A DNA stretch of 46,718 nucleotides, counting the filler, from Catajapyx aquilonaris (lineage: Eukaryota), in NCBI GenBank assembly GCA_000934665.2. It is 2 parts of 2 records of this genome, joined end to end, with 100 filler letters (N's around TTAATTAATTAA, not from the genome) between each part and the next. Parts side by side here need not be neighbours in the genome. Positions count along the whole stretch, not along the records: positions 1 to 23,325 come from JYFJ02005705.1; 1 more part is not named here. One strand, given 5' to 3'. Shown here piece by piece: positions 1 through 46,718 of the stretch. The notes below the pieces were generated by a model. That model was not told the origin of the DNA. It saw only the letters and a program-made list of their open reading frames with translations, and did no database searches. Within the stretch, counting starts at the first letter, position 1. Each line of letters starts with the position of its first letter. The translations under genes were made by a program, and so were the position numbers.

Positions 1-890
1 GCCAGCTCACCACACACGCTCGCTAAACGCCTGTGAATATCTGTCGCTGCCACTCCTTCCGTCCACAAAAACCATGTGGTCCACCTCTGCCCGTGGTGGT
101 CTCCTGCAACGTTGTCCATGACGAGAGCTACGGGCACTACTTTCGGTGGGCACTGCGACGAGGCAACTGACACGAATGGGGTCAAATTTTCTCTGGCGCC
201 CTCAGGAAGACTCGTTCCATCTAGTGGTGAATAATGGAACTTCTAGGACCACTTCTTCAGAAGGAAAAAGAAAGAGTGTAAATTAGAAGACACGTAAAAG
301 TAGGAAAGGCAAGGAGAACAAAAATGGAACATAATTGTGTACCAATAAGGTGAGTGTTGTATGATACTAGTCTATGTTTTGTGAAGAAACATATAGTTTC
401 TTTACAAGACATACGAGGCAGAAGGTACATTTCGCTTACTTCTATAGTGTTCTATCACAACAATACCAAATACTAGTACTGCAGTTAATGATGTAGATAT
501 ATTATGTAATGATTGGTGATTGGTCATTCTAGTAGTGACCGTTACTTCATATGAAGGAAGGCGGATAAACGGCAAGTCGCGGACGGCATCACATAACAGC
601 GCGACATCATTACTTTTGCAGAATCAATAGTAGGCCTACACATATCAGGCTCCTATATACGCGTAAATACAGTATAATATGCTGTAAAGATTATTTGATG
701 TTATATAAACTATCAAGCCTCACAACCCTGACAAAGAAAATAAATTATTGGAAAGACCTTTGATCGATTCGTTGCTTAACAATATTCTTTTCAACCCTTA
801 TTGAGGGCCAATGAGAAGAGCACCACGCCTTGATGGCGTTATGTCATCACAGAGCAGAAAGGAAGAGACAGACAAAGTTGGAAGCCAACA

Positions 891-2200
891 ATGGACGTGT
901 ACGACTCCCTCCGTCCTTCTCTTCTCGCCTTCAGGGCATTGGGACTATTCCCAGTGGCCAACACCAGAAGAGGTCCATACAAGAGGAGCTGGACACTCAC
1001 TCTGTTGCCTCCGATCCTCTTCGTCGGAGTTAATCTGGCCTGGATGGTGGGTTATAACAAATGGGGAGACTACACCACGGGTGAAGCGTTTGGAGTGATA
1101 GCATTCGTCGATTTGATTAGTGTGACCTTGACCGTTGTCATGTTGTACGTCGCTCTCCAAGTCAAATTCAAACCAGCCTGTGACCTGGTGTCCCAACTGA
1201 ATGAATTTGACCAGGCAACCACAGGGAATGGAGAGGTCAACCGGAAGATAAGGATTGCCGGGTGGGCCTATGTGGCGACGTTGGTTGTCATCATTCTGGG
1301 TCAGGAAGTATCAGGGTGCCTAGCGTACTGGGAAAACTATCAGCTGACATATGAAAATATATCAGTCCCGGCATACATGTTGTTCCATATAATTCCTCAA
1401 GCCACTATCATCCAGGCGGCGTTTCTCTCCGAGTCGATCAGGCATCGTCTGGAGTCAGTTACACGTGAAATGAAAGAAGTCATTCAAACCCTTCAAGTCA
1501 CGTTTCCTCTGCGGGACAAGGACCAGGCCCCAGTTGGATGGCCAAATGTCCGACCTTTGACCCGTCTCAGCGGTGAATTCGATTACCTGTGCAAGACGGT
1601 CGCTTGCATGAACGACGCCTTCGGTTTCGCCCTGGCCGTTGTTTATCTACACTTTGTGGTAGTGGTCGTTACCACTGGGTCATATTTATTGAAGGAAAAT
1701 AACATGAGTGCCGTTACGGCATACGCGATCATTGCGACGCTTACCAAGAGCACGGTTGTGATTTTCGCCACTTGGGTGATGGACAAACTTCCATGTCAGG
1801 TAAGTGTATATGAGCTCTGTCAGGTTGTCTTAATTGGACGGCGTTATGCAATAAATTATTAAATGCCATTTTTCTTTTAATAGGCCTCATCCCTCCTGCA
1901 CGATCTTTGCATGATAGACCTGTCTAGCATCACTTGGCAGTACCAAAGGCAAATCCGTCACCTCACAACCAGGATGACATTGCATCGGGTGGAAATATCT
2001 ACCGGATTTTTTTCCATTAGAAAGAGCATAATTTCTGCGGTAAGAATATAGTGAAATATCTACATTTTACAAGTATAGCTGATATTATCCATCATGTTCC
2101 TCTACATATTGTTACCAACTTTTTTTTCTTCCAACAGATGATGTCATCAATAGTTACATATGTTATCATCATTGCTCAGTTCAGAGCTTCAGAATGGTGA
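891..2200 (+). CDS. Gustatory receptor copy 1, complete 3-exon gene (~375 aa)
   Basis: Exons 891-1799, 1884-2039 and 2138-2200 with GT..AG phase-0 introns. Multi-TM hydrophobic protein ending MMSSIVTYVIIIAQFRASEW*, i.e. the GR TM7 motif TYhhhhhQF. Confidence 0.92.
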
Positions 2201-2753
2201 TCAGAGGACACATCTCCGTACATAGTAATCAAGAAATAGTGTAAGTTTGTTATTAAGCTAAAATATAGCGACAAAAAACCGTTTGACACTTTTGTCATCA
2301 TTATGGGCGATAGTTATCCTCTCTTATCATAATTATACTTTAATTCCACACAGTTACACACAAAATTCTATTGTACTTATGCATTTGTGAAATTGTCACT
2401 TACATTTTACTCAATCCCTATTTCAAAGTTTCCCTTGGCAGTTCTCTATTGTCAACCTATAGTATTTAAATCCATGCAATCAATCAATTTTTCGCACCTT
2501 CCAGAATGGACAAACCTGGCTAAAATAATATTGAATGAACGAAATTGTTACCTATACTCAAGTGACTGATGAGAAAATACAAAAAGAACTGCTGCTGTCA
2601 TTCCCACTAAATAAATACAGGTAGTTAATCATTTTGTTGACTTTTATTGTCCAGAAGCCTTTCAACCAAGCAAGCCACGCGAATAATCAATTATTTCTAT
2701 TGCATTTGCCTTGAGCAGTTGAAGGTAATCGACTGTCGAGTTCGGAAGCAACA

Positions 2754-3659
2754 ATGGACGTGTACGACTCCCTCCGTCCTTCTCTTCTCGCCTTCAGGGC
2801 ATTGGGACTATTCCCAGTGGCCAACACAAGAAGAGGTCCGTACAAGAGGAGCTGGACACTCACCGTCTTGCCTCCGATCATCTTCGTCGGTGTTAATCTG
2901 ACTTGGATAGTGGGTTTTAAACACTGGGAACATTACACTTCGGGTGACGCTCTTGGCGTGGCTTATGCCATCGACTTGATCAATGTGATTCTGACGGTTG
3001 TTACGTTGTACGTCACCCTTCAGATCAAATTCAACCCAGTGTGTGACCTGGTGTCCAAACTGCATGAATTTGACCAGGCAACCACAGGGAATGGAGAGGT
3101 CAACCGGAAGATAAGGGTTGCTGGATGGGCCTATGTGGTGACGCTAATTGCCATCATTCTGGTCCATGAAGTCTCGGCTTACTTTGCATTCTTTTTATAC
3201 ATTCAAGCACTGGATGTGATAGCGTACATGGCCTACGAGTTGTTCTACTTCATTTCTCAAGCTACTTTCATCCAAGCAGTGTTTCTCTCCGAGTCGATCA
3301 GGCTTCGTCTGGAGTCAGTCGCATGTGACATCAGAGAAGCGATTCAAACCCTTCAAGTCACTTTTCCTCCGGTGGACAAGGTCCAGGCCCCATTTGGATG
3401 GTCAAATAACCGACCTTTGACCCGTCTCAGCGGTGAATTCGATCATCTCTGCAAGATGGTCGCCTCTGTTAACAATGCCTTCGGTTTCGCCCTGGCCATT
3501 GCTTATCTGCACTTCGTGGTGGTGGTAGTTTCCACTGGATCACTCCTGTTGCAAGTGGACAACAAAAATGCTGCAATCGCATATGAGGTCATTACAACGC
3601 TGACCAGAAGCACGGTCGTAATATTCGTAACATATGTGATGGACAAGCTTCCACACCAG
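2754..3659 (+). CDS. GR long first coding exon (copy 2), intact, no adjacent exons 2/3; probable alternative first exon
   Basis: 906-nt open frame homologous to copy 1, ending CAG|GTAAGT in phase 0. No exon-2/3 sequence seen before 8276. Confidence 0.85.
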
Positions 3660-3978
3660 GTAAGTGTATAGGCCTATTATGACTGTATAAGTTGCGTTTG
3701 GCTTCTCTTATTAGAGCTGGAGTCTTGTCTCTCTGAGATCAATAATATATTGATTGAATGTAATGAAATTTAGTACAAGGATTGGCCCATTGAGTATTCT
3801 AGGTGTGACCCTTATGTGCTGTGAATGTTTGTCTCTTCGTTTATTACAATTGACATGCTTCACACACACATTCCAATTAATGTAATGTGTTGTATAACAG
3901 ATTTTGTTGCCATAAAGCCTCACAACCGTAAAAAAAATACAATTATCGGAACGACCTTTTGATCGATTAGTTGCTTAA

Positions 3979-5119
3979 AGGGACACTCCACTCAAAATAC
4001 AAGTTGGATTCTAAAAATCGGGCAAGAAATCCTTATTCCGAGGGTATAAGCAGTTTTCCTGAGAGACGAACGGTAAGGCCATGGCGAGCCGTCAAATTTC
4101 GGAAATTCGAATCTGGCGCAAAAGAGCTGCCCGCCCGGCCCAGTCCGCTCCCTCCGCGCGCGCCGCCAACCGGGACTTGGCAGAAAATGCCTGACATCTC
4201 AGCCGTCTTTGGTCCACGCCATATTTGGTCCGCACGGGTGTCGGGTCGTGCGTTTGCGCCAATTTTGAAGGGGGTTTCCGTGGGCGGCATGCTACCTATT
4301 ACCCTGGACAGTAAATATGCTCACCACAGCACTGTTACTTTACGGGCCAGGGCTGGGCCAGGGTTTAAACTGGCTCCTGACTGTTTATGAAAGGCCCACA
4401 TCTGCTACCCAGCAGATCCAAGAACAAAGGCGACCTGCGGGCGGGGAAGGAAACTTGAGTCATGACTAAACTCTTAGCACTTGCGAAAGACATGTGTGAG
4501 TCAGCCCTTTCGAATGGGCATATCGGAGTGTACGGTACTTGGAAGCAGGCAGGATGGATGGGCAGGGAGCTCCTGATGTCGGTGCTACCGATGGTGCATT
4601 TTGTGTAGTGTGTCGGCTCCGCAGCAATGACGTCAGCCACGAGACTTATCGTCGAACTTTTTTTTTTCATTTCCGTGTCGAAAGGAACATTTGATGCGCC
4701 AATGACAAGCAGCGCTGAATACGGCTCAAATTGGTACGGGAGGAGGCCGTGCGGACTTGGGCTGGGAAGCCCTGCTGGTACGTCGCTCTCAGCAACAGCC
4801 GCCGTACCGTCAAGAAGGTGATTCGGACCTGCACGTGGACTGTCGGATTCCGCCATCTTTGAAAAATATACCACACCAAAGATCAGGGTAACCTCCATGA
4901 GTGCCGGCAACCATGTAGGGGACCCTGCCAAATTTCCGACTGTTTCTGCCCATACCCGGAAGAGGCGCTGCTCTTCTGCGCCAGATTCGAATTTCCGAAC
5001 TTTGACGGCTCGTCCTGGCCTTACCGTTCGTCTCTCTGGAAAACTGCTTATTACCCTCGGAATCAGGATTTTCTGCCGGATTTTTAGAATCCAACTTGTA
5101 TTTTGAGTGGAGTGTTCCT
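3979..5119. mobile_element. Non-autonomous DNA transposon, Kolobok/T2-MITE-like
   Basis: TTAA at 3975-3978 and 5120-5123. ~150-bp TIRs starting AGG(G/A)ACACTCCACTCAAAATACAAGTTGG. Paralogous empty sites (GTTGCTTAACAAT) near 771-783 and 17347-17359. Confidence 0.88.
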
Positions 5120-5252
5120 TTAACATTTGCTTTCCATCTGTATTGTGCCTCTCTTGAAAGGACTATACTTACCTTGCTACGTGTCATTTCCGAGAGAGTT
5201 GGCTTAGACCATAACAGTTGAAAGGAAGCAAATGTCAAGTTCGGAAGCAACA

Positions 5253-6177
5253 ATGGACGTGTACGACTCTCTCCGTCCTTCTGTGCTCGTCTTCAGGAGT
5301 TCAGGGCATTGGGACTATTCCCAGTGGCCAACACCAGAAGAGGTCCATACAAGAGGAGCTGGACACTCACTCTCTTGCCTCCGATCATCTTCGTCGGTGT
5401 TAATCTGACTTGGATCGTGGGTTACAAACACTGGGAATATTACACTTTTGGTGAAGCTTCCGGAGTGGTGGAAGCCATCGACTTGATTAATGTCACCCTG
5501 ACGGTTGTCACGTTGTACGTCACCCTTCTGGTCAAATTCAACCAAGCCTGTGACCTGGTGTCCAAACTGCATGAATTTGACCTGACAACCACAGATAATG
5601 GAGAGGTCAACCGAAAGATAAGGGTTGCTGGGTGGGCCTATGTGGTGACACTATAGTTGTCATCATTCTGGTGGAGGAAGTCTTGGGGTAGGCCTACTTC
5701 TCATTCTGGTCAGGCAATCAGGCACATTATGTGATGGTGTACCTGGCGTACGAGTTGTTCTACATCATTCCTCAAGCGACCCTCTTCCAAGCACAGTTTC
5801 TCTCCGAGTCGATCAGGCTTCGTCTGGATTCAGTCGCACGTGAAATCAGAGAAGTGATTCAGACCTTTAAAGTCACTTATCCCCCGCCGGACAAAAACCA
5901 GGCGCCACCAGTTCTATGGTCAAGTGTCCGACCTCTGACCCGTCTCAGTGGTGAATTCGATCATCTCAGCAAGATGGTCGCCGATGTCAACGACACCTAC
6001 GGTTTTCCCCTGGCCATGGTTTATCTGCACTTCGTGGTAGTGGTAGTTACTACGGGATCACTCTTACTGGAAGCTGAAAACACCACTGCTTCTGTTACAT
6101 ACGAGGTCATTACAACTCTCGCCAGAAGCACAATCATAATATTTGCGACGTGTGTGATGGACAAACTTCCACGTCAA
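5253..6177 (+). pseudogene. GR long first exon (copy 3), pseudogenised
   Basis: Homologous to the other first exons, but has an 8-nt duplication/insertion near 5290-5305 and further indel/stop lesions near 5650-5700. Donor CAA|GTAAGT retained; no own exons 2/3. Confidence 0.88.
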
Positions 6178-6224
6178 GTAAGTTAATTAAGTAATGTAAT
6201 TATTTCCGACTCATGCACGATGTA

Positions 6225-6418
6225 CACCCGCGAGCATAAAGATGGAGACGGCAGGCTGCTCTGCCAATTGCAGCTATTACGGTATCAAATATACTGTCAT
6301 AAATATACGAACACACGCCTGAAGCAGCTAACTCGGTCCAAAAAGAGTTCATTAATTTGAGTCGGATAAAGAAAGGTCAAAAAGGGGCCTGCCGTCTCCA
6401 TCTTTATGCTCGCGGGGG
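6225..6418. mobile_element. MITE with TA target duplication
   Basis: ~30-bp TIR CCCGCGAGCATAAAGATGGAGACGGCAGGC, with TA on both sides. Confidence 0.8.
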
Positions 6419-6426
6419 TACATGGA

Positions 6427-6586
6427 TATAGTCAAGGGGGTAATCACTTCTGTACTCCAGTGTACACCTGTGAGTGGTACTCCCTGGTACTCCTCAGGCA
6501 CCTCACTCTTTATTACTCCGTGGTACTCCTTGAATTTGGTACTCCAGTGTACACTTTTCAGTCGAGTGATTACCCCCTTGGATATA
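6427..6586. mobile_element. Small MITE-like element
   Basis: TIR CAAGGGGGTAATCACT / AGTGATTACCCCCTTG; interior has repeated GTACTCC motifs. Confidence 0.7.
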
Positions 6587-7112
6587 GTAGTCTACCTATA
6601 GAATAAAATTATAATGAGTGTGCACGACATTTTCTTGTTTTAATTGCGAGTTGAATGCTCCTTTTTCAAGTAGGGCTGAAAAAATCATTGTCTCTTAACG
6701 ATTCGACAAGGATAGCATAATTATGTTCGCCGTCACCATATGTGGCAGCATGGTGATCACTCATTGGTTGATTTCCTGCCAGGTTTCGCATTATACCCGT
6801 AAATATATTGATTATGCGGTGTACAAGGAGTGGTTTTGGGATATTCAAGAGGTGACCCATATTTCGCGAGAGGGTGTGTACTGTACTGTCCATCTGCAAT
6901 GTTCTGTAAAGCTGCTTTTGCTGCCGTAACGCTTCACATCTGGGACAATGACATTTATTGGAAAAACCTTTCATTGGCATGGACTTTAAAAGTTTCTTTT
7001 AGGCTTTAGTACGTGTCAATGAAGGGACACCACGCCTTGTGACTGGTCAATTTCTGACACACATGTCATTATACCAGTGGAAGGGAAGAGAGTGACGAGT
7101 TCGGAAGCAACA

Positions 7113-8586
7113 ATGGACGTGTACGACTCTCTCCGTCCTTCTCTTCTCGTCTTCAAGACATTGGGACTATTCCCAGCGGTCAACACTAGAAGAGGTCCAT
7201 ACAAGAGGAGCTGGACACTCACCATCTTGCCTCCGATCATCTTCGTCGGTGCAAACTTGGTCTGGATGTTGGGTTTTGGACACTGGGAATATTACCAATC
7301 GGGTAAAGCCACTGCAGTAATAGGGGTTATCGACATGATCAATGTCACCACATCGGTGGTGACACTCTTCGTCACGCTTCAGGTTAACTTCAGCCGAGCC
7401 TGTGACCTGGTGTCCCAACTGCATGAATTTGATCTGGCGACGACAGGGAATGCAGAGGTCAACCGGAAGATAAAGGCTGAAGGATGGGCCTATGTTGTGA
7501 CGCTAATTAGCGTCATACTGGTCCAGGAAGTCTCCATGTGTGTAGCATTTTGGTCAGGCTTTACGACAAAGGCCATGATATGGAATATGGCCTACGAGTT
7601 GTTCTACATAATTCCTCAAGTGACCCTCATCCAAGCAGTGTTTCTCACCGAGTCGATCAGGCTTCGCCTAGAGTCAGTCACACGTGACATCAGGGAAGTG
7701 ATTCAAACCCTTCAAGTCACGTTTCCTCCTCCTGACAAGGACCTGGCCCCAGTTCGATGGTCTACTGTCCGACCTTTGACCCGTTTGAGCGGTGAATTCG
7801 ATCATCTCTGCAAGATGGTGTCCTGTGTCAACGACGCCTACGGTTTCGCCTTGGCCGTTGCTTATTTGCATTATGTTGTAACTTTCGTTACAATGGGATC
7901 TATCTTGTTGGAATCGGACAACACGAGTGCTATTACTGCATTTGTGATCATTGCAGTGCTTACCAAAAGTATTGTTGTAATATTTGCGACGTGTGTGATG
8001 GGAAAACCTCCACATCAGGTAAGATTATGTAACAACACAAAAGATGTCAATAGTGGAATTGAGAATTTAGTATTATTATCAAAGACTCCGGTATGTGCAG
8101 TATACCATACACTGGGTCCGAGTAAACTAGAGTATAGACAACGTCTAACAGTGACTTATAAAGAGATACTCCACTATTGAGGATCAACATTATACAGTTA
8201 TATTAGAAGAGTCTGTAATACATGGTAACCGCCCCGTAACGCTGTAAATGAAACTAATATTATTATTCTCAACAGGCCTCATCTCTACTGCACGACCTCC
8301 GCATGATTGACCTGTCCTGCCTCACTTGGCCTGACCAAATGCAGATCCGTGACCTCACTATGAAGGTGACTTACCCCCGTGTGGAAATATATGCCGGATT
8401 TTTTTCCGTGACAAAGAGGATCATACTTGGGGTGAGGAAAAAGTTCAAGTGTTGCCTTTCATAATATGTTTCCTTGAATGATGCTCAGTATTAATGTTAG
8501 ATTTCTTTCAACAGATGCTGTCATCAATAGCAACATATTTTATCATCATAGCTCAGTTCAGAGCGTCAGAAAAATCATCACCGTAA
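7113..8586 (+). CDS. Gustatory receptor copy 4, complete (~377 aa); exons 2/3 probably shared with copy 2
   Basis: Exons 7113-8018, 8276-8431 and 8515-8586; ends MLSSIATYFIIIAQFRASEKSSP*. Confidence 0.92.
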
Positions 8587-10418
8587 ATTAGCCTTCCACA
8601 ATCATATTCATTAAGAAAATTAATTTTGCCAGTTTAAATAATGTTGTACACTTTTTTTTATTATTGGTGAGATTTGAGGTATCCACCAACATCCTTCCTT
8701 ATTCTCTTCTTTACTACATGTACATAATTATGCGTTAATTTCATTCAAAATGGGAAAAAAAATTATTATGAATCGTGCTTTCATTCATTTTCCAGGTCTA
8801 ATGAACCTGCCTTTTATTTGTACATAGAGTAGTTTTCATCTGTGAAAATTATATACATAAATATACTGTATAATAAAATGCAGTATAAAGCAAGATGATT
8901 CCATGGTAAACTGTGCCCTTCATTGCATAAACGATTAATAAATTAACATGGCAACGGTACCTAGAAATAATGTTGATTTGCGTTCGTGATGCAACAAAAA
9001 AATGAAGAGAATAATCTCCAATTCAATTTATTATATCGATGTTTGTAAGACTAATATGTAATCATTAGCTTCGAAATGGATTAAGTAAACACGCACAATC
9101 TCATCACCTATTGTTTCAGACAATGTGACATCTTCGAACTCTCTAAGTTTGTAACAATAATAGACAAGCCGTACTAAATATTGCAGGAAATGAAGAACTT
9201 ACATGTCAAACGAGTTTATTAGAGGTTGTATAAGGACCATTATCTATTTCCGCTAATTACGGCTGCATTGTAAATGAGCCCATTATGTCAGTAAAGTTCT
9301 TCAAATGTCAGAAATCCACTTAGTTGGTTAATAAATGGCTGATGAGAGATCAGAAAGCACTTGATCTCTCGTTAATATTTTTCTGTAATGACTTATTGTA
9401 CCGAAGTAATCGCTTCGGGTCCGGAAGAACCAGCCCGAGACGTCAACTTCCGTGTAGGTCATCTGAGAGATCCAGTCCCGTATCTTGTTCTCGAAGTCCA
9501 CTGCTGACAGGTCGATTCGACGAAGGTGACGAAGACCATAATGATGATGCCTGTAGACAAATGAGATCCAATGGGTCGTAAATTCAATGTTAAAAGTTAC
9601 ATGATTTTTTTTTGAGCGAAATCGAGTGACCACCCACATTGGCGCAAGCCAATTGTTCCAATAACAACGTTGCCATACAGTTGCTTCTCTGTCACGTGTT
9701 CCATTTTATTGACCTCGTAATTGCCTCACGGACTTTTTGTTGGAGTGTGGTTTTTGACCACTCTCTCCGAGACTCTCTCGGTTTGTTTCCTGGGAGGAAA
9801 ATTCCTGTCTTGTGGCCAGTGTGTATCCAACACTTGGTGGGGGCTGTTTGGGCTTGGCTCCTTGGGAGCTTGGGTTGTCCCCACGTGTTGCGTTTGTTTC
9901 CGGTAACCTGTGTACGGGGTATTTTGATACTTGTACGGTTATTACCGAAGTTTGTTTTTGGCTGTACAGGTTCTGTAACCTGTAGCCACGTGGTGGTCAA
10001 GCATTATACAGGGTGATTCTCCCTGGAAATGGAAACCCAAACATTCCTCAATAACTTTTTAACTATGGTATGGTTCCGGATGAAAATGGACGTGTAGGCT
10101 AAATATGTTGATTAGGGTTATGTGTAAGGATTGGTTTCAGTTGGGGTATTCAAGAGGTGACCTATATTTCACGAGAGGGTGTGTACTGTACTGTCCATCT
10201 GCAATGTTCTGTAAGGCTGCTTTTGTTGCCATAACCCTTCACATTTGTGACAAAGACAATTATTGGAAAAACCTTTCATTGGCATGGACTTTAAAAGTTT
10301 CTTTTAGGCTTTAGTACGTGTCAACTGAAGGGACACCACGCCTTGCGACTGGTCAATTTCTGACACATTTGCCATTATACCAGTGGAAGGGAAGGGAGTG
10401 ACGAGTTCGGAAGCAACA

Positions 10419-11873
10419 ATGGACGTGTACGACTCCCTCCGTCCTTCTCTTCTCGTCTTCAGGGCATTGGGACTATTCCCAGTGGCCAACACAAGAAGAG
10501 GTCCATACAAAAGAAGCTGGACACTCACTCTGTTGCCTCCGATCCTCTTCGTTGGTGTTAATCTGACTTGGATCGTGGGGTACAAACACTGGGAACATTA
10601 CCAATCGGGTAAAGCCACTGCAGTAATAGGGCTTATCGACATGATCAATGTCACCACATCGGTGGTGACACTCTTCGTCACGCTTCAGGTTAAATTTAGC
10701 CGAGTCTGTGACCTGGTGTCCCAACTGCATGAATTTGACTTGGCAACCACAGGGAATGCAGAGGTCAACAGGAAGATAAGGGCTGAAGGATGGGCCTATG
10801 TTGTGACGCTAATTAGCGTCATACTGGTCCAGGAAGTCTCCATGTGTGCAGCATTTTGGCCAACCTTTGCGACAAAGTCCATTATATGGATTTTTGCTTT
10901 CGAGTTGTTCTCCTTAATTCCTCAAGCGACCCTCATTCAAGCAGTCTTTCTCTCAGAGTCGATCAGGCTTCGTCTAGAGTCAGTCACACGTGACATCAGG
11001 GAAGTGATTCAAACCCTTCAAGTCACGTATCCTCCCCCGGACAAGCACCAGGCCCCATTAGGATGGTCTAGTGTCCGACCTTTGACCCGTCTCAGCGGTG
11101 AATTCGATCACCTCTGCAAGATGGTCTCCTGTGTCAACGACGCCTACGGTTTCGCCTTGGCCGTTGCTTACTTGCATTCTGTTGTAACATTCGTTACAAC
11201 GGTATCTGTCTTGTTGGAATCTTACAAGATTGCAATTACTGCATTTGTGATCATTGCAGTAATTACCAGAAGCACTGTTGTAATATTTGCGACGTGTGTA
11301 ATGGGGAAACTTCCACATCAGGTAAGATTATGTAACAACACATAAGATGTCAATAATGGAATTGAGAATTACCATTATTATCAAATTATGTGCAGTACCT
11401 TAAGCTGCGTTCCCGTAAACTACAAGAGTATAGAGAACGTCTAACAGTGACTTATAAAGAGATACTCCACTTTTGAGGATTAACATTATACAGTTATATT
11501 AGAAGAGTTTATAATACATGGTAACCGCCCCGTCATGCTGTAAATGAAACTAATATTATTATTCTCAACAGGCCTCGTCTCTACTGCACGACCTCCGCAT
11601 GGTTGACCTGTCTTGCCTCACTTGGCCTGACCAAATGCAGATCCGTGACCTCACAATGAAGGTGACATACCCTCGTGTGGAAATATATGCCGGATTTTTT
11701 TCCGTTACAAAGAGGATCATACTTGGGGTGAGGAAAAAGTTCAAGTGTTGCGTTTCATATGTTTCCTATGCTCAGTATTAATGTTAGATTTCTTTCAGCA
11801 GATGCTGTCATCAATAGCAACATATTTCATCATCATAGCTCAGTTCAGAGCGTCAGAAAAATCATCACCGTAA
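10419..11873 (+). CDS. Gustatory receptor copy 5, complete (~376 aa)
   Basis: Exons 10419-11321, 11572-11727 and 11802-11873, canonical splice sites, TYFIIIAQF motif. Confidence 0.92.
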
Positions 11874-12568: not shown

Positions 12569-13105
12569 TTCCATGTCAGGTAAGTGTGAGCTCTGTCAGG
12601 TTGTCTTAATTGAACGGCATTATGCAATAATGAGTCAACCCGCATGGAACCATTTCTGAGAAAAGGGGCTTTGAATATCACGCCTGTGAAATTAATGCAG
12701 TGTCCTTTTCGGTCATTTATGGCAGAAGTATGCAGATTTCGTCAGATTGATTTTAACTGAATGAAGTACGCTCAGTTGCTCAGTTCAGAGCTTCAGAATA
12801 GTGATCATAGGACACATCTCCATACATTAGTAATCAAGAAATAGTGTAAGTTTTTTGTTAAGCTAAAATAGCGACAAAAAAAACGTTTTGACACTTTTGT
12901 CATCATTATGGGCGAGCCATCTACCAATATCCTCTCTTATCATAATTATACTTTAATTACACACAATTACACACAAAATTCTATTGCACTTTATGCATTT
13001 GTGAAATTGTCACTTCCATTTTACTTAATCCCTATTTCAAAGTTTACCTTGGCAGTTCTCTAATTGTCAACCTATAGTATTTAAATCCATGCAATCGATC
13101 AATTT
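12569..13105 (+). pseudogene. Deletion remnant of a copy-1-type GR
   Basis: 12569-12630 matches the copy 1 exon1/intron1 junction (TTCCATGTCAGGTAAGTGT...GCAATAA). ~12776-13105 matches the end of copy 1 exon 3 and its 3' flank (~2172-2490). Confidence 0.85.
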
Positions 13106-13581
13106 TATATGTGAGACAATATTGCACGTTGAATTCAATCAAACACTGTCGATTGGAGACAATTGAAACCGGAGCCTGCATAGAGCAAATGAACAACATA
13201 ATGATATAGTATGCCAATGGCAGTGATTGCGACATGCTTGTCAAAGATTGAATGCTCTCCAAACATCAGAATGTGGGCAAGGTTATAGTTTTTTTTGCGA
13301 AACTGACATGATTGTAGTCGATAACGTAGTAGAAATGACGAAATCAAACACGCAGGAGTCACATTACTGATTCCTTTAGACACCAAGACATCTTGACGAT
13401 CTTGTCACCTTGCAGTAATAATGGACAAGCCTGGCTAAAATAATACAGGTAGTTAATCATTTTGTTGACTTTTATTGTCCAGGAGCCTTTTAACCAAGCA
13501 AGCCACGTGAATAATATATTATTTCTACCGCGTTTGCCTTGAGCAGTTGAAGGTAATCGACTGTCGAGTTCGGAACCAACA

Positions 13582-14487
13582 ATGGACGTGTACGACTCCC
13601 TCCGTCCTTCTCTTCTCGTCTTCAAAGCATTGGGACTATTCCCAGTGGCCAACACCAGAAGAGGTCCATACCAGAGGATCTGGACACTCACTCTGTTGCC
13701 TCCGATCATCTTCGTCACAGTAAACGTGGCCTGGATCATGGGTTTTAAACACTGGGAACAATACACTTCGGGTGACGCTCTTGCCGTGGCTTATGCCATC
13801 GACTTGATCAATGTGATTCTGACTGTTGTTGCGTTGTACGTCACCCATCAGATCAAATTCAACCCAGTGTGTGACCTGGTATCCAAACTGCATGAATTTG
13901 ACCTGGCAATCTCAAGGAACTTAGAGATCAACCGGAAGATAAGGGTTGCTGGATGGGCCTATGTGGTGACGCTAATTGGCATCATTCTAGTGCAGGAAGT
14001 CTCGGGGTACTTTTTATTCTTTTTAGACTTTCAAGCACTGGACGTGATAGCGTACATGGCCTACGAGTTGTTCTACTTCATTCCCCAAGCTACTTTCATG
14101 GAAGCAGTGTTTCTCTCCGAGTCGATCAGGCTTCGTCTAGAGTCAGTCGCACGTGAGATCAGAGAAGCGATTCAAACCCTTCAAGTCACGTTTCCTCCGC
14201 TGGACAACGACCAGGGCCCAGTTGGATGGTCAAGTGGCCGACCTTTGACCCGTCTCAGCGGTGAATTCGATCATCTCTGCAGGATGGTCGCCTCTGTTAA
14301 CAATGCCTTCGGTTTCGCCCTGGCCATTGCTTACCTTCACTTCGTGGCGGTGGTAGTTACCACTGGATCACTCCTGTTGCAAGTGGATAACGAAAGTGCT
14401 GCAATCGCATACGACGTCATTACAACCCTCACCAGAAGCACAATCATAATATTTGCGACATGTGTGATGGACCAACTTCCACGTCAA
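13582..14487 (+). CDS. GR long first coding exon (copy 6), intact, no adjacent exons 2/3; probable alternative first exon
   Basis: 906-nt open frame with phase-0 donor CAA|GTAAGT. The next exon 2 is at 16374. Confidence 0.85.
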
Positions 14488-15223
14488 GTAAGTTAATATC
14501 ATGTAATATATTGTTTCCAACTCATGCACATGGATTCTTCTCTACACACGAATGAAATGAGCAATCGTTGGAATGCACAACGGAGAAGTGGGGAAAAATA
14601 CGGGCAGTAATTATTATTGTGACCGTATTTCTTTCTATTCCGTTGTGCATTCTGTATCCCATGATGCTCCAGATGTGGTAGTCCGCATTAATTTGTAAAC
14701 TATCACATGTCCAAAAGTAGAAAACAATAATCATAATGAGTGTGCACCACATTTCCTTGTTTTAATTGCGAGTTGACTGCTCCTTTTTCAAAATAGGACA
14801 GGAAAAATCATTATCGCTTAATGATTCAACGTGGATAGGATAATTATGTTCGCTGCATGGTGATCACTCCTTCGTTGATTTCCTGCCAGGTTTTGCATTA
14901 TATACGTAAATATGTTGACTATGTGTATATACAAGGAGTGGTTTTGGGGTATTCAAGAGGTGATCCATATTTCACGAGAGGGTGTGTACGGTACTGTCCA
15001 TTTACAATGTTCTGTAAAGCTGCTTTTGCTGCCAGAATGCTTCACATCTGTGACGAAGACAATTATTGGAAAACCCTTTCATTGGCATGGACCTTAAAGT
15101 TTCTTTGAGCCTTTATTACGTGTCAACTGATGGGACACCACGCCTTGTGACTGGTCAATTCCTGATGACGGATTTGTCATTACACCAGTGGAAGGGAAGA
15201 GAGTGACGAGTTTGGACGCAACA

Positions 15224-16113
15224 ATGGACGTGTACGACTCTCTCCGTCCTTCTGTTCTCGTCTTCAAAGCATTGGGACTATTCCCAGTGGCCAACACCAG
15301 AAGAGGGCCATACAAAAGAAGCTGGACACTCACCATCTTGCCTCCGATCATCTTCGTCGGTGCAAACCTGGTCTGGATGGTGGGTTATGGACACTGGGAA
15401 TATTACCAATCGGGTAAAGCCACTGCAGTAACAGGGCTTATCGACATGATCAATGTCATCACATCGGCGGTGACACTCTTCGTCACGCTTCAGGTTAAAT
15501 TCAGCCGAGCCTGTGACCTGGTGTCCCAACTGCCTGAATTTGACCTGGCGACGACAGGGAATGCAGAGATCAACCGGAAGATAAAGGCGGAAGGATGGGC
15601 CTATGTTATGACGCTAATTAGCGTCATACTGGTCCAGGAAGTATCCATGTGTGCAGCATTTTGGTCAGCCTTTGCGACAAAGGCCATGATATGGAATATG
15701 GCCTACGAGTTGTTCTACATAACTCCTCAAGCGACCCTCATCCAAGCAGTGTTTCTCTCAGAGTCGATCAGGCTTCGTCTAGAGTCAGTCACACGTGACA
15801 TCAGGGAAGTGATTCAAACCCTTCAAGTCACGTATCCTCCTCCTGACAAGGACCAGGCCCCAGTTCGATGGTCAAGTGTCCGACCTCTGACCCGTCTCAG
15901 CGGTGAATTCGATCACCTCTGCAAGATGGTCTCCTGTGTCAACGACACCTACGGTTCCACTTGCATTATGTTGTAACTTTCGTTACAATGGGATCTATCT
16001 TGTTGGAATCGGACAACACAAGTGCTATTACGGTATACGCGATCATTACAGTGCTTAACAAAAGCATTGTTGTAATATTTGCGACGTGTGTAATGGGAAA
16101 ACCTCCACATCAG
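15224..16113 (+). pseudogene. GR long first exon (copy 7) with frameshift
   Basis: 890 nt versus 906 nt in paralogues; net 16-nt deletion at ~15956 (TACGGTTCCACTTGCAT versus TACGGTTTCGCCTTGGCCGTTGCTTATTTGCAT). Confidence 0.85.
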
Positions 16114-16373
16114 GTAAGATTATGTAACAACGCAAAAGATGTCAATAGTGGAATTGAGAATTTAGTATTATTATCAAAGACTCCGGTATGTGCAGTATAC
16201 CATACGCTGCGTCCGAGTAAACTAGAGTATAGACAACGTCTAACAGTGACTTATAAAGAGATACTCCACTATTGAGGATTAACATTATACAGTTATATTA
16301 GAAGAGTTTATAATACATGGTAACCGCCCCGTCATGCTGTAAATAGAACTAATATTATTATTATTCTCAACAG

Positions 16374-16675
16374 GCCTCATCTCTACTGCACGACCTCCGC
16401 ATGATTGACCTGTCCTGCCTCACTTGGCCTGACCAAATGCAGATCCGTGACCTCACAATGAAGGTGACATACCCTCGTGTGGAAATATATGCCGGATTTT
16501 TTTCCGTTACAAAGAGGATCATACTTGGGGTGAGGAAAAAGTTCAAGTGTTGCGTTTCATATGTTTCCTATGCTCAGTATTAATGTTAGATTTCTTTCAA
16601 CAGATGCTGTCATCAATAGCAACATATTTCATCATCATAGCTCAGTTCAGAGCGTCAGAAAAATCATCACCGTAA
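16374..16675 (+). CDS. Intact GR exons 2 and 3 (shared C-terminal cassette)
   Basis: Exons 16374-16529 and 16604-16675; open frame, splice sites intact, TYFIIIAQF motif. Confidence 0.88.
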
Positions 16676-17249
16676 ATTAGCCCTCCACCAGCATATTCCC
16701 TAAGAAAATTACTTTTGCAAGTTTCAATAATGTTGCGCACTTTTTTTTCGTTATTATAGGTGAGGTTTGAGGTATCCACCAACATCCTTCCTTATTCTCT
16801 TCATTATTACTACTTGTGTATAATTATGCGTTAATTTTATTCAGAAGCGGAACAAAAAATTCATGCTGCATCGTGCTTTCATTCAATTTCCGACTATGAA
16901 CCTGCATTTTATTTCTTACACTAGTAAAACCCTCGCTCCGCTCGCCTTTTCCTAGGGCGCAGGCCTGCGGTGTAGGACATGTTCTTAATGATGCTCACCC
17001 AACAGTTATCCTCATCATACCCTCCCCCCCCTCTCCCCCCTCCTTATATTAAACCTTTGACGTCTAAGTACATCATAATTGAAATACTCCATGACGTCAA
17101 TTGCATCCTGGACTGTTCCCATGCTGAAGGCCTTCCAGTTGTTGGGTCTGAACAGGAACGTATGCCACAACACGTTGCCCCAGACGTATACAGTACTGCT
17201 GCCACTATAGATCTGTTGTACGTGTACGGTCGACCGGTACACATATTTC

Positions 17250-17510
17250 AATTAACGTAATGTGTTGTATATCAGCTTTTGTTGCCATAAAGCCCCACAA
17301 TTGTTTAAAAAAAAGACAATTATTGGAACGACCTTTTGATCGATTCGTTGCTTAACAATTGCTTTCCATCTGTATTGTGCCTCTCTTGAAAGGACTATAC
17401 TTACCTTGCTAAGTGTCAGTTCCGACAGTGTTGACTTAGAACATAACAGTTGAATAGAAGCAAATGTCAAATTCGGAAGCAACAATGTACGTGTACGACT
17501 CTCTCCATCC
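17250..17510 (+). pseudogene. Remnant of a copy-3-type GR first exon: upstream region plus first ~9 codons
   Basis: Matches 3880-3978 joined to 5124-5280 without the MITE. ATG at 17485, then an abrupt join to sequence like that downstream of copy 6 (~14605). Confidence 0.8.
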
Positions 17511-18214: not shown

Positions 18215-19698
18215 ATGGACGTGTACGACTCTCTCCGTCCTTCTCTTCTCGTCTTCAGGGCATTGGGACTATTCCCAGTGGCCAACACCAGAAGAGGTCC
18301 ATACAAGAGGAGCTGGACACTCACCATCTTGCCTCCGATCATCTTCGTCGGTGTTAATCTGACTTGGATCGTGGGTTACAAACACTGGGAACATTACCAA
18401 TCGGGTAAAGCCACTGCGGTAATACGGTCTATCGACAGGATCAATGTCACCACATCGGTGGTGACACTCTTCGTCACGCTTCATGTTAAATTCCGCCGAG
18501 CCTGTGACCTGGTGTCCCAACTGCATGAGTTTGACCTGGCAACCACAGGGAATGGAGAGGTCAACCGGAAGATAAGGGCTGAAGGATGGGCCTATGTTGT
18601 GACGCTAATTAGCGCCATACTGGTCCAGGAAGTCTCCATGTGTGCAGCATTTTGGTCAGGCTTTACGACAAAGGCCATGATATGGATTGTGGCTTACGAG
18701 TTGTTCAACATAATTCCTCTAGCGACCCTCATCCAAGCAGTGTTTCTCTCCGAGTCGATCAGGCTTCGTCTAGAGTCAGTCACACGTGACATCAGGGAAG
18801 TAATTCAGACCCTTCAAGTCACGTATCCTCCGCCTGACAAGCACCAGGCCTCATTAAGATGGTCTACTGTCCGACCTTTGACCCGTTTGAGCGGTGAATT
18901 CGATCATCTCTGCAAGATGGTGTCCTGTGTCAACGACGCCTACGGTTTCGCCTTGGCCGTTGCTTATTTGCATTATGTTGTAACTTTCGTTACAACGGGA
19001 TCTATCTTTTTGGTATTGGACAACACGATTCCAATAACTGCATTTGTGATCATTCCAGTGCTTACCAGGAGCACTGCTGTAATATTTGCGACGTGTGCGA
19101 TGGACAAACTTCCAAGTGAGGTAAGATTATGTAACAAAAAAGATGTCAATAGTGGAATATATTTAAAAATTTTGAATTATTATCATAGATTCCGTTATGT
19201 GCAGTATCTTACGCTGTGTCCGAGTAAACTACAAGTGTAGACAACGTCTAACAGTGACTTCTGAAAGGATGCTCCACTATTGAGGATTAGCATTATACCG
19301 AAGAGCCTATATTATAAGCGTCTGCAATACGTGGTAACCCATCATAAATAAAACTAATTATTCTCAACAGGCCTCATCTCTCCTGCACGACCTCCGCATG
19401 ATTGACCTGTCCTGCCTCACTTGGCCTGACCAAATGCAGATCCGTGACCTCACAATGAAGGTGACTTACCCCCGTGTGGAAATATATGCTGGATTTTTTT
19501 CCGTTACGAAGAGGATCATACTTGGGGTGAGGAAAAAGTTTAATGTCAAGTGTTTAAACAAATATCAGCATTTCATATGATTGTTTCCTTGATTGCTCAA
19601 TACTATATATTATATTCTTTCAACAGATGCTGTCATCAATAGCAACATATTTCATCATCATAGCTCAGTTCAGAGCGTCAGAAAAATCATCGCCATAA
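18215..19698 (+). CDS. Gustatory receptor copy 8, complete (~377 aa)
   Basis: Exons 18215-19120, 19371-19526 and 19627-19698. Confidence 0.9.
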
Positions 19699-21520: not shown

Positions 21521-22831
21521 AGTTACTTCTTGTCCTACAGACTGACCTTCTCCTTCTGCACACTACAAGATTGTAGAAAGCAATTTTTCCGGTGTGTTAT
21601 GTAAAGAGGGGAGTGTTCCATCATGCTTTGTCCAAAGAGACGATGAACATATTGAACGTATATCTTTTAATCGCCTTTGAACTTGACAGCCAAGGGCTTA
21701 TCGGTTTCTGTAAATTCGATTTTGGTAAATATGCATGGGGTGAGGCAACAACCCAACATGAATGCATGTCACAATAATAAGTAAGTTATCATTTCAGATT
21801 GATTATACGAGCTCGTAATGACTCACAAGTACTTTCAATAAAAGGCGATAAGCGATTCTGAACGGAATTAATTAACTTAAATAATGCAGCCACACTACGC
21901 GCGTTACGCTTTAAAAGGCGCAAAATTATTTTATAGTGCTAATTAGTGATCTATATAATATGGGCACCAACTCAGACGCTGCAGTCATCATAATTAACCT
22001 CCTGAGACCCCTAATACACCTTTCAATCACCTTTGTTTTTTTTACGCGCTTGAGTTAGTCAGAAGGTGCTGGAAAAAGCAAAGGTACAGTATACTGTACC
22101 TACAAAACATGTATTTGTGCATGTCTTTTGTACTTCTCTGTAAGGGTTCCTTTTCCTTGCGAAATTCCCTGCATGCGACGAAGCATCACTTGAAGCAAGT
22201 TCTCGTAGGGGAGATTAGCCGGATGGTCGTTCAGGGGTTTATGGGGGTCAATCCTGATGGAAAAAGCTTGCTGATGGTCTCTCCCAGGTTGTCAAATAAT
22301 CCATCCGGATATGTGCTAACACACGCACCACAAAAATCGATATGTCTACAGATAGATACAATGTTTCAAAAGCTTTTATTTATTGCGAACTTTTCCACAC
22401 ATTTTGAGGGGGCCTCTTACAAGGTAATATATTCCTTCAGTTTTAATGTGCATGTACAGTCTTATATACCGATAAAAGACACCGAATGGAGAATGTTTCT
22501 GCGATCACAATAATTGCAAAATTCTCAAACAAACTTTTAAACCCCTGCCATGAGAATATTAACAAGATATATTTTGCCATTGAATTAATCAATTCGGTAT
22601 GGTATGTCGAACTGTGCCAGGACGACAAGATACATTGTAAGTGATCCGGCCAGCTGAAATGAGTACAAAATTGCAAAATTTTACTTCGCTCATAAAAATG
22701 TTTTTGCACAGAATAACAGATGATAAGTAGACTTATACAGGAGCGATAATTCCGCTTCGAATTGGAAAGAAGCAGCCGCCGAAATCTCCACCTCGGGATA
22801 TGCCACCTTCCAAGTCAGGTCATATTAGTGA

Positions 22832-30900: not shown

Positions 30901-33900
30901 TACTGGTAAACCTTTTCCTTCAGATAACCCCACAGGCATCGGACTGATTTTGCTTTTGCTGGAGAACTTTCTAGTGCATCTCGGATGCTCTGTTTGTTTT
31001 CTGCATTCACAACTGTTTTCCCTTTGCTGGGGTTATTTTGATCCAAAACACTTCCAGTTTCATCGAACCGTTGGTTTATCCTCGCAACAGTTTTTCGGGT
31101 AGGAGCCGGTCCACCGAAAAGGTTTACCATTTGACGGCACACTTCTGTAACATTTTTTGTCACTGAATACAGTCGAACACACTGGACACGTTTCTCCAAC
31201 GACAGTCTTGCTTCGGCCATTTTTGTTGCAAGACCTGAGCATTGCTTTAGTACTGCCACCTACATGGAAGATTTTCGCACCCTCCCTTGATGTTTTGGTA
31301 CGTACTTTAAATAAATATGTTGTTCCGTTCGAAAGTAATTGCGTTTCAAAGAGTGAGTCGTCAACTCTGGAACACCCTGTAGATGAGGTCAAAGGGGGAA
31401 AAGAACTCAGGCCTAAGTAAGGCAATGGCTCAAAAACTCCATTGTCAAAATGTGGATTATACTGGAAATGATTGTAGATGTGTGGGATTGCTTTTGTTTC
31501 TTTTATTTCATTCTGTTTTTTTGTTGTTGTTTTTTTTGTTTTTTTTAAAGATACCACACAGCAACCAAAACAGCTGCTGGTTCTGGCACTAACAATTCCA
31601 AAGCTGATAATATCAAAGAGGAGCTTGAAGATGCACAGCAAAAGGTGGAGCAGTGTAGGGTAAGATTTTCTCCCAACATTTTTTCCTGGCACACAAGAAT
31701 TAGCAGGTGTCTCAGGTTATGTATTTGATTGCCTAGTGTCCATATTGTGTTCAAATGTCTCAGTGGTGTTACTATGGTACCCATGTACATTAATTAACCT
31801 TCCCCTCTTCATGTAGTGTATTTTATGTGAAGTGCATTAGAAAAGTATGCAAATTTTACTATATTCTGAATTCTTGGATTCATATAGCCTCTAAAAACTC
31901 TGGAGGCCTTGATGTTCTTGGGAGCTGACATAGGAATGCGAATACCAGAGCTAAACGTTTGCAACAATTTGTTGGGTATTCATAGTCAAATGCAAAACTG
32001 TGTGTGTATTGCTCTTCAAGTAGAAAGGTGACAGCCCCACTTGGCATGCTGGGTGTTTGCTGAAGTGGTCACAATCAGAACAGTGAGTGTATTTCTGATG
32101 CGGAATGCCACTGAATATTCTAAGCGTAATATTCTAAGTTAAAGTTCTTCTGTATTGTTCAATTTTTTTCCCAGTAGTGCCACATTTTAAAATCGGGAAG
32201 AATGTCAGAAGTATTAGTACCATTCTTCCACATAAACCACTCTTACCACCTCTGCTACTTTAAATATTCTGTGGGCAACATGGTGATGTAGTGGTTAGCA
32301 CCACCGACTTCCATGGCTGAAGTCATGAGTTTTATCCCCATGTTGGATGGAGGATTTTCTCATGTGGAAATAGTTTTTATGGAGTCTCAGAATGCTCATG
32401 GTGGTTTTCTTGGATTCTCTTGTTTCTTTCCACAGTCAAAATCCATCACAACACATTGAATCAATAAAGTCCAGAATAAAAAGAGGATCCCCTAAGAGGA
32501 CACAGTTCTATCATGGTTCTACCTTAGTCAGATATTAACGGGGTTATTCCAGACCATGTAGGTCCTTAAACCCCGGGCCCCACATAGGGCCTATATCATC
32601 ACTCTAAGTCCGTTTCGTCGTGGTCCGCCAGGGGCGGACCACCCGTTCGCTTCCGAATCGAACCCAAGCCGTCATAGGGTCGAGACTCGACCATCGGGAC
32701 GACACCCAGAGGAGCCGCCCGTCCCACGATCGAGTCCCGAACCCGTAAGGTCCGGAGCTCGCCCCAATCCATACTACCATACTTCTCAACTGGAATCTTG
32801 AATATGTGGCATCACATCACTTTGAAAACATGTGTAAACTGGATCAAACCTTTACATTTGGCATGTCGCACATCTGTTGGCTCCAAAGAGTATCAAACAC
32901 CTCCACAACTTTTGATAAGCAATGTAATATTGAAGTATTTGACATGTGTGAAAATCAGCCCCAAGTCACTCTCCCTCTTTTCACGTGAGCTTACCTGATC
33001 TCCCCCACCAAGGGGGATTGGCCATGGTCGGCGCCAGAGTCACTTGCCTAGATGGTGGTGCCTTACCTAGAGGGGCAATTCTGAACCATTAGGGTCAACT
33101 CCGATTGGCTGGAGTTTAAAAAGGCCTCCTGTGCTACTCCATGGCTCTTTTTAACCAATATACTTCTTCCAGCCAATTGGAGTTGGCTCGAATGGTTCAG
33201 AATTGGCCTGCTAGGTAAGGCGCCACCATCTTGGTGCATGACTCTAGTGCCGACCATGGCCAATCCCCCTTGCTGAGGGAGATTAGCTAATCTCACAGGG
33301 GTAGCAATGTACTGGTATAGGGAGTGACTTGGGGGCTGGTGAAAATCATAATTTGTTCATGTATTTTGTCTTACAGGATGCTCTTGCAGCTGAAATGTTT
33401 CAATTTATGTCACGCGAGCAAGCCATGGCTGAATTGATATTATTGCTGGTGAAACTGCAGCGGGATTATCACAGAGCTGCCTTTGATGTGCTGGATAGCA
33501 AACTTTCATCTGTTGAGTCTTTAATACGTATGTCAGACATATTTCAAGCTGTATTTTTTTTGCCACTTACTTATTTCCATTGGCACTTGAAACATTACTT
33601 TGGTTCACTTGCAGGTGACAATCCATATAAGCCTGCTTACGGAGTGGATCTGGACGAACACCTAAGAGTAACAGAACGACAAGTAGCTTATCCGATTGAA
33701 CTCTGCGTATGTGCCTTATTAGAAGGGGGGGTGCAGGAAGAGGGACTGTTTCGGGTGGCTGGAGGTGAAATCATTATTTGTAGTGGCAATTTTAGAAAGC
33801 TGACATATATTAACAAAATACTTATTGCAGGAGCTTCTCGTGTTAGAAAACTGAAGACTGCTTTTGACACTGGCCTTGTGGATTTACCCATGATTCTGGA

Positions 33901-36900: not shown

Positions 36901-37160
36901 CAGAAGGTACTGGGAAGGGACCAATTGGTGATGGGATGCTTTCGTCACAAGGGGTGGGAGGGTTTATTGGCAATTCTGAGTGCCAGTCCATGCATACCAA
37001 CAGTCAGGTTTACATATCTGCAGGTGGAAAGTCCCAGTCCCCAGCAAATACCCCCCCATCTCCTCACATTCCTTCGCGCCCTCCCCGACCCCCAGTGCCG
37101 CCACCAGTGCCTGCCACCAAGCCACGTAGCAGCTATGGTTCAGAAAGCACAGACTTGTAG
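24922..37160 (+). CDS. RhoGAP92B: BAR-domain RhoGAP (RICH/ARHGAP17/ARHGAP44/SH3BP1 family), 5'-partial
   Basis: Phase-consistent exons 24922-25072, 27862-27938, 30133-30321, 31551-31659, 33377-33527, 33615-33764, 33831-34008, 34070-34282, 34352-34431, 34809-35010, 35888-36542, 36597-36729, 36784-~36906 (donor uncertain) and 37024-37160. BAR start RAEKSEVLSEDL, GAP motifs EEGLFRVAG, ALKSYLRELPEPLL and NIAIVMTPNLIW, Pro-rich tail ending ESTDL. Confidence 0.9.
25718..26182. repeat. Fold-back/MITE-like element
   Basis: Inverted arms GGGGTTGTTTTTGGTCCCTCTCCAGGAAG / CTTCCTGGAGAGGGACCAAAAACACCCC, with an internal partial duplicate. Ends approximate. Confidence 0.6.
26232..27662. mobile_element. piggyBac-like non-autonomous element
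   Basis: TTAA|CCCTTTGTCTTCCG ... CGGGTGACAAAGGG|TTAA. Confidence 0.65.
28096..28251. mobile_element. Palindromic MITE
   Basis: Near-complete hairpin TACTATTAACCGCAAAAGTAATGTCGCACTGTTATG / CATAACAGTGCGACATTACTTTTGCTGTTAATAGTA. A related right arm occurs at ~573-633. Confidence 0.75.
28252..29152. mobile_element. TA-flanked non-autonomous DNA transposon
   Basis: TA|GGGGTGAGCGGGGCACGATGGC ... GCCATCTAGCCCCGGTCTCCCC|TA. The GGGGCAYG.TGGCAC motif recurs internally in both orientations. Confidence 0.7.
29745..30065. mobile_element. Fold-back MITE
   Basis: Inverted arms GTGTGCTTAGCGAGTCCCCTATCCCC / GGGGATAGGGGACTTGCTAAGCACAC, plus outer GCAACTCCCT / AGGGAGTTGC. Confidence 0.7.
30387..31396. mobile_element. 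piggyBac-like MITE interrupted by a mariner element
   Basis: TTAA|CCCTTTGAC left end with duplicated GACATCATATGATGTC; GTCAAAGGG right end; right TSD degraded (GGAA). Confidence 0.5.
30621..31379 (-). mobile_element. Internally deleted Tc1/mariner (maT/DD37D-like) transposon
   Basis: TA TSD and ~75-bp TIRs CAGGGTGTTCCAGAGTTGACGACTCACTCTTTGAAACGC. Minus ORF has an HTH-like N-terminus (RFDETGSVLD) fused to the C-terminal LWGYLKEKVY motif. Confidence 0.88.
32273..32470 (+). mobile_element. Degenerate tRNA-derived SINE
   Basis: Head GGGCAACATGGTGATGTAGTGGTTAGCAC, body motif GGTTTTCTTGGATTCTCTTGTTTCTTTCCACAGTC, AATAAA-rich end. Confidence 0.55.
32523..32790 (-). ncRNA. Candidate structured RNA with box C/D-like 3' module (identity unknown)
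   Basis: Minus strand CTTAG-A-GTGATGA...CTGA-CTAAG (32608-32523), plus several GC-rich hairpins whose mismatches are G-U on the minus strand. Confidence 0.35.
32996..33285. mobile_element. MITE with long TIRs
   Basis: ~95-bp imperfect inverted arms beginning ATCTCCC.CA.CAAGGGGGATTGGCCATGGTCGGC. Confidence 0.78.
35053..35316. mobile_element. hAT (Charlie/Buster-type) MITE
   Basis: TIR CAGTGGTTCCCAAACTTT; 8-bp flanks CCGTAGAT / CCAGAGAT (6/8 match). Confidence 0.82.
35514..35721. mobile_element. Tc1/mariner-type MITE
   Basis: TA|CAGGGTGGTCCAACATCAAGTGTCGTTTTATAACGGC ... reverse complement|TA. Confidence 0.85.
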
Positions 37161-46591: not shown

Positions 46592-46718
46592 TTAATCTAA
46601 TTACTGCAATTATCTCAACATAAGAGATGGGCAATTAATACTGGATCCCTTTTTGTTACATGATGTGTTTTTCTCGTCAATGATTGGGCCCCTTAGGGGT
46701 CGTCCATATACCACGTGA

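Follow-up and report, generated by a model that had tools for sequence, protein, structure and literature searches.

Does a long first exon that keeps its reading frame, and has no tail exons of its own, contribute to a receptor, or is it a fragment left behind by a lost gene? This question is raised by exon 2754 (exons are named here by their first base) in the genome of Catajapyx aquilonaris, a dipluran. The exon lies in the 46,718-nucleotide stretch of DNA analysed here (the window), of which bases 1-23325 are contig G000:C3396 (JYFJ02005705.1). This part of the window holds a tandem array of 7tm_7 receptor genes. They are annotated as relict gustatory receptor (GR) genes, and two upstream copies, 2754 and 5253, lack exons 2 and 3 of their own. 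Splicing of exon 2754 to an exon-2/3 cassette shared with a downstream gene is the likeliest model, and we consider it probable, though well short of secure. The locus and the spliced model are already in print (PMC13388675, Nat Commun 2026); statements on this and the other cited sources refer to the parts of them covered here, and published gene names are those of PMC13388675.

Structure of the locus

The features of the locus are listed below; a slash marks the exon boundary at donors.

2607-2753, + strand: DNA upstream of exon 2754, putatively promoter-like; matches 13435-13581 without indels at 136 of 147 bases
2754-3659, + strand: orphan first exon of published CaquGR442a, intact; 906 base pairs (bp), 302 codons, no stop, phase 0, CAG/GTAAGT
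3660-3665, + strand: phase-0 donor GTAAGT of exon 2754, bridged by a single-copy contig in DNA runs X1-X3
3744-5252 (3744-3974 and 5122-5252), + strand: intergenic DNA and the region ahead of exon 5253, interrupted by an inserted element; aligned to a spacer on G000:C961 and to 17239-17483
5253-6177, + strand: orphan long first exon, broken; 925 bp, two frameshifts and an in-frame TAG, donor CAA/GTAAGT kept
6602-6607, + strand: AATAAA/ATTAAA hexamer, the only one on the + strand of the would-be intron
7113-8018, + strand: cassette-proximal long first exon, intact, exon 1 of CaquGR442c; 906 bp, CAG/GTAAGA
8276-8431, + strand: cassette exon 2; 156 bp, 52 codons, phase 0 at both ends
8515-8586, + strand: cassette exon 3, with the seventh transmembrane segment (TM7) motif TYFIIIAQF and then a stop
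13582-14487, + strand: sister orphan exon, intact, in a duplicated module; published CaquGR443a

One exon-2/3 cassette thus lies downstream of three long first exons, 2754 (intact), 5253 (broken) and 7113 (intact). Each has a start codon and a donor of the same phase, and the three stand in tandem on one strand; exon 5253, which carries insertions of 8, 2, 6 and 3 bases relative to exon 2754, is frameshifted and keeps its donor. This layout had been given in a preliminary description of the DNA, and its coordinates, frames, phases and donors were correct on re-measurement.

No exon 2 or exon 3 was found between 3660 and 8275 by tblastn, blastn (word size 7) or iterated profile searches, which bears out the earlier statement that no such sequence lies between the first exons. 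Matches in this interval were at chance level (best E 1.9 by tblastn, inside exon 5253; best E 2.8 by blastn). The cassette searches recovered 5 complete + strand cassettes and the - strand cassette elsewhere in the window. When exon 2754 is joined to the cassette, the phases match and the frame is open for 377 residues; unspliced read-through meets a stop after 3 codons past the donor, giving 305 amino acids.

In the proposed mechanism, a transcript would start upstream of exon 2754, and the donor at 3659 would be joined to the next true acceptor, at 8275. This junction (3659->8276) would remove 4,616 bases, a would-be intron that holds first exons 5253 and 7113. The product would be a 377-residue receptor whose last 75 residues are common to the 7113 receptor, and exon 5253 would be a dead isoform. 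The locus would work like Drosophila Gr39a and Gr28b, yet would have arisen locally. By the Gr39a pattern, the first donor would be used rather than the two later donors. The DNA ahead of exon 5253 shows homology to the corresponding DNA of complete genes, and the DNA ahead of exon 2754 is kept in the sister copy.

Against Pfam 7tm_7 (cut-off 26.6 bits), exon 2754 scored 58 bits (E 1.3e-15, above the curated cut-off) and exon 7113 scored 68.6 bits; the top Atlas matches were arthropod GR clusters. When exon 7113 was used as query in a homologue search, none of 1,874 candidates scored. Exon 3 at 8515 carries the terminal-exon motif (six residues, then TYxxxxxQ) as defined in PMC13388675. Crude hydropathy profiles, which are not a proper membrane predictor, gave 5 peaks in the 2754 model and 6 in the 7113 model. 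Our trees comprised paralogues from the Catajapyx genome only, and placement in the relict clade (CaquGR31-547) follows the naming of PMC13388675. The usual gene plan of the bitter-GR supergroup, a common trait rather than a membership criterion in that paper, is a long exon, a 69-72 bp exon, a 90 bp exon and a short exon, with three phase-0 introns. The locus here differs in having a single middle exon, of 156 bp, and two introns, both of phase 0. The middle intron appears to have been lost at this locus, because more distant paralogues have a split exon 2. A search of the genome for the odorant receptor (OR) family gave a single weak match, G000:C453:69645-69911 (+). This 7tm_6 match (29 bits, above the cut-off) is possibly a precursor OR of PMC13388675.

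Continuity of the assembly

The preliminary description had named the collapse of exons 2 and 3 out of the assembly after 3660 as a scenario that would undo its reading. Two repeat features are relevant here.

3975-5121, no strand: high-copy non-coding element bounded by terminal inverted repeats of ~157 bp; its insertion site is a TTAA ~130 bp ahead of exon 5253
6220-6580, no strand: pair of short, high-copy repeats downstream of exon 5253, in the spacer, recognised by depth and loose ends, with a 37-bp inverted repeat (6220-6256/6387-6423)

Near-identical sequences do exist in the array: four exon-2 copies (8276-8431, 11572-11727, 16374-16529 and 19371-19526) are 98-100% identical in protein, which would make a collapse conceivable. 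Four of the five DNA runs were compared with the region 800-9400; of these, X1, X2 and X3 are one sample and may be the source of the assembly. In these runs a 525-base contig matched 3476-4000 at depth 18-36, and a 328-base contig matched 5919-6246 at single-copy depth, each with 0 differences and 0 gaps. Each contig extends from inside an orphan exon, past its donor, into the next repeat; because single-copy contigs bridge them, both orphan donors run directly into the sequence as assembled. The element at 3975-5121 had a depth of 10^3-10^4, versus ~30 for single-copy DNA, and none of the listed contigs bridged it; the sequences on its two sides adjoin each other at 17239-17483, a paralogous empty site, and no N runs occur before 23326. 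Run X5, of which a small share was used, covered repeats alone (8 of 30 bins) and was uninformative. Collapse of a cassette in the assembly is unlikely, and with the single-copy contigs and the empty site in place, we give almost no weight to the particular case of near-identical exons 2-3 merged after 3660. Further copies of the ends of the element lie at 46030-46167 and 46483-46595.

Cassette-less first exons in the genome

The survey drew on 40 stretches, which surround some of the 129 genome matches (358,547 bases merged, own contig included). It gave 93 exon-1 loci: 81 had their own cassette, 9 were followed by another exon 1, and 3 were at edges or unresolved. The 81 cassette-bearing loci comprised 68 with one near-full frame and, by our reading, 5 with an extra intron, 6 broken and 2 doubtful. 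Three of the 9 cassette-less loci were full-length, with an open frame and a phase-0 donor (2754, 13582 and G000:C1211:54173-55066); the other 6 were broken, truncated or fragments.

The third intact orphan, G000:C1211:54173-55066 (-), has 298 codons and donor GAG/GTAAGG and ends 418 bases before the next gene; the pair is published as CaquGR460a/b, with the orphan as CaquGR460a. Its nearest paralogue among the 74 compared is 39% identical, and it is our best candidate for an old alternative exon. In the gene downstream of it, the long exon is divided by an additional phase-0 intron. An apparent GC donor (TAT/GCAAGT) was seen in another GR first exon, G000:C552:56694-57644 (+). G000:C961:13103 has an open frame and has lost its last ~16 codons and its normal donor; it was counted as broken here. 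PMC13388675 models it as isoform CaquGR441a, with G000:C961:14306 as 441b. CaquGR441a ends with unrelated codons where the DNA has only a weak GTTAAA donor, and this isoform call looks doubtful.

Splicing or decay

Comparison of exon 2754 with exon 13582 shows 85 substitutions in 906 bases and neither indels nor stops. The flanking non-coding DNA has 22 indels (16 of them not multiples of three) per 116 substitutions. This indel rate is realistic, because the count in exon 5253 agrees with it (4 indels, 6.7 expected). Neutral survival of exon 2754 since the split of the modules had P ~0.002-0.016.

Codon models were run with our own script, over all 305 codons and over 180 codons in orthologous blocks chosen as free of obvious conversion; similarity among the paralogues is patchy, probably by gene conversion, and this blurs the ratio of non-synonymous to synonymous rates (dN/dS, or omega). 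Over all 305 codons, omega for the two orphan tips was 0.65 (p 0.063 against 1). Young complete paralogues had omega 0.67 and 1.12 in the two codon sets (p 0.91 and 0.93 versus the orphans). Private non-synonymous to synonymous changes (N:S) were 28:6 in the orphans and 46:26 in five young complete genes (p 0.07). The dN/dS of exon 2754 against its paralogues, which the preliminary description had proposed as a check, therefore did not separate the orphans from young complete copies. The frame is kept; amino-acid constraint does not decide. The strong GTAAGT donor, pointed out in the same description, is present; it was rejected as additional evidence because it is inherited, CAG/GTAAGT being found also in complete paralogues 891, G000:C961:8802 and 14306.

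Several results weigh against splicing of exon 2754. Orphans were broken far more often (6 of 9) than complete genes (6-8 of 81; Fisher p 1e-4 to 3e-4), and among orphans that keep the 3' end with a GT donor, 3 of 6 were broken (p 0.025). For a cassette loss at some random point after the module split, neutral survival had P ~0.16-0.24. Omega for the orphan tips was 1.08 over the 180 codons; as a sign of orphan decay this value was rejected, because the same codons gave 1.12 in young complete paralogues. Private N:S was 11:2 and 17:4 in the two orphan branches, with no purifying signal. The 5253 lineage, which already lacked its cassette when the modules split, is disrupted in module 1 and nearly deleted at 17484-17510, and otherwise persists only as the tail of exon 13582. 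Within the would-be intron itself lie two competing donors, 10 sites that resemble acceptors and a single polyadenylation hexamer.

These results suit the alternative that exon 2754 is recent birth-and-death debris, whose exons 2-3 were lost too recently for decay to show and which is not productively spliced. Such debris would have inherited its donor, and with an undated loss its intact frame would survive neutrally at the P of ~0.16-0.24 given above. Deletions are frequent in the array and among related loci (12569-12630/12776-13106, 17239-17510, 9397-9540, 22603-22824 and G000:C961:13103). However, two separate recent events would be needed for 2754 and 13582 (~0.03-0.06 jointly), with a third at G000:C1211, and the architecture is repeatedly functional in insects in the papers cited below. 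The published annotation has the same model (CaquGR442a/c), by assumption, and was counted in favour of splicing. Taken together, we regard debris as unlikely, though a serious contender.

A further alternative is that exon 2754 persists because its unspliced transcript encodes a truncated protein of 305 residues or regulates the downstream gene. Its open frame continues for 3 codons past the donor before a stop. The C-terminal region of GRs has a role in channel assembly. The truncated product would be without this conserved region and its TM7 motif, and we consider this alternative very unlikely. Splicing of exon 2754 to the shared cassette remains our preferred model.

Origin of the cassette-less exons

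Beyond ~3744, the spacer downstream of exon 2754 can be aligned to a stretch of G000:C961 that runs from the stop codon of one complete gene into the next gene. Therefore at most ~85 bases of intron are left, and the cassette is simply absent. The alignment points to a copy of the upstream region and exon 1 that was joined, within ~85 bases of its donor, to post-stop intergenic DNA. Deletion and unequal crossing-over give the same picture for this loss. A DNA search for another copy of the post-2754 spacer found 17239-17345 only, which gave no date for the loss of the cassette.

Modules 2754-8586 and 13582-16675 differ at 116 of 1,486 non-coding bases, with 22 indels. Exon 13582 has a head like 2754, and its last ~20 codons, donor and intron start (to 14530) are like 5253; by its sequence, it is a hybrid of the two types. 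Because it carries this 5253-type tail, donor and intron start, a 5253-type orphan evidently stood ahead of a cassette gene before the module duplication. Exon 13582 may be the sole working user of the cassette at 16374, because the first exon belonging to that cassette, 15224, is frameshifted.

An independent, local origin, as had been suggested for this locus, is supported: 81 of 93 loci have their own cassette, and in a quick tree of 74 exons, the tree quoted here, the intact orphans are split between two clades far apart, in favour of a local origin on more than one occasion. The relict GR lineage is moreover reported to be nearly absent from flies (PMC13388675), which argues in the same direction.

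Neighbouring genes and remnants

The other features of the array are as follows.

891-2200, + strand: self-contained three-exon paralogue upstream of exon 2754
10419, + strand: complete gene, published CaquGR444
12569-12630 and 12776-13106, + strand: deletion remnants of an 891-type gene
15224, + strand: frameshifted gene (16-base deletion) with its own cassette
17239-17510, + strand: remnant of a 5253-type gene, exon almost wholly deleted (17484-17510)
18215, + strand: complete gene, published CaquGR445
21520-20207, - strand: more distant complete gene

The first exons of the four near-identical cassettes are ~84-89% identical. Near-identical tails beside diverged first exons suggest strong constraint on the tail, or conversion. 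Lone decayed exon-2/3-like fragments lie at 9397-9540 (-) and 22603-22824 (-); no first exon was found nearby on that strand. Elsewhere in the window, a RhoGAP gene of the ARHGAP17/44/SH3BP1 type lies at ~33300-37160 (+), with one exon 60-70% identical to insect proteins; no close relative was among its matches, which point only to an arthropod.

Discussion

The preliminary description had expected annotators to mis-model this locus as truncated genes; it is in fact published as CaquGR442a/c. In supplementary file 5 of PMC13388675, CaquGR442a is exon 2754 plus the cassette and CaquGR442c is the 7113 gene, as judged by eye against our translations, with some of the alignments in the supplement trimmed. 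Isoform letters are said there to rise with distance from the shared exons; 442a is the farthest and 442c the nearest. 'GR442b' had 0 matches in the part of supplementary file 5 searched. Pseudogenes were excluded from the trees of that paper, and exon 5253 is probably the unlisted CaquGR442b. The paper counts 517 relict GR genes and 9 extra isoforms in C. aquilonaris and assumes splicing wherever the shared-tail pattern is met; neither 'RNA-seq' nor 'RNAseq' occurs in its main text. Its model is the same as ours; a selection test, the module history and RNA support are not in the parts covered. No paper testing this junction was found by title or the start of the abstract, in a search that left subscription papers and most supplements outside.

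The shared-tail arrangement is common in insect GR and OR genes (PMC6080948, PMC6175461, PMC6720082, PMC2204066). Drosophila Gr39a, Gr28b and Gr23a resemble the locus here in their large donor-only first exons, with the first acceptor at a small conserved exon block, and in the gain, loss and pseudogenisation of first exons and relaxed selection on duplicates (PMC2204066). They differ in that their splicing is reported to have been demonstrated and some of their exons are older than a 40-60 million year split (PMC2204066), whereas the Catajapyx exons are young (~8% non-coding module divergence) and belong to another GR lineage, and their splicing is predicted. Blattella (26 GR genes, Gr60a-m), Thermobia and beetles also have tandem long first exons with shared short C-terminal exons and some pseudogenic isoforms (PMC6175461, PMC6080948, PMC6720082), and DponGr38a-d have the same one-plus-two exon plan. 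In Blattella, shared-tail splices commonly have RNA sequencing support (PMC6175461). Alternatively spliced loci make up 13-39% of GRs in three beetles and none in Agrilus; they are rare in the relict radiation (9 isoforms in 517 genes).

We tentatively propose, at somewhat less than an even chance, that shared-tail loci here are born when the two short tail exons of a whole tandem gene are lost and the gene is rescued immediately, by splicing to the tail of the next gene. If so, most orphans would die and few would persist, and neat exon duplication would not be the route. The window would then hold birth (2754), hybrid recombination (13582) and death (5253, 17484) in one array, which is young (~8% diverged) and in a non-insect hexapod. 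Disruption is much commoner among exons that lack a cassette than among complete genes, and some published isoforms based on layout may therefore be debris, for example CaquGR441a. The residual value of the locus is as a young array for testing the origin and loss of shared-tail isoforms. If the predicted splice of exon 2754 is true, shared-tail splicing would occur in a dipluran, and this locus would be a young example of how such loci begin.

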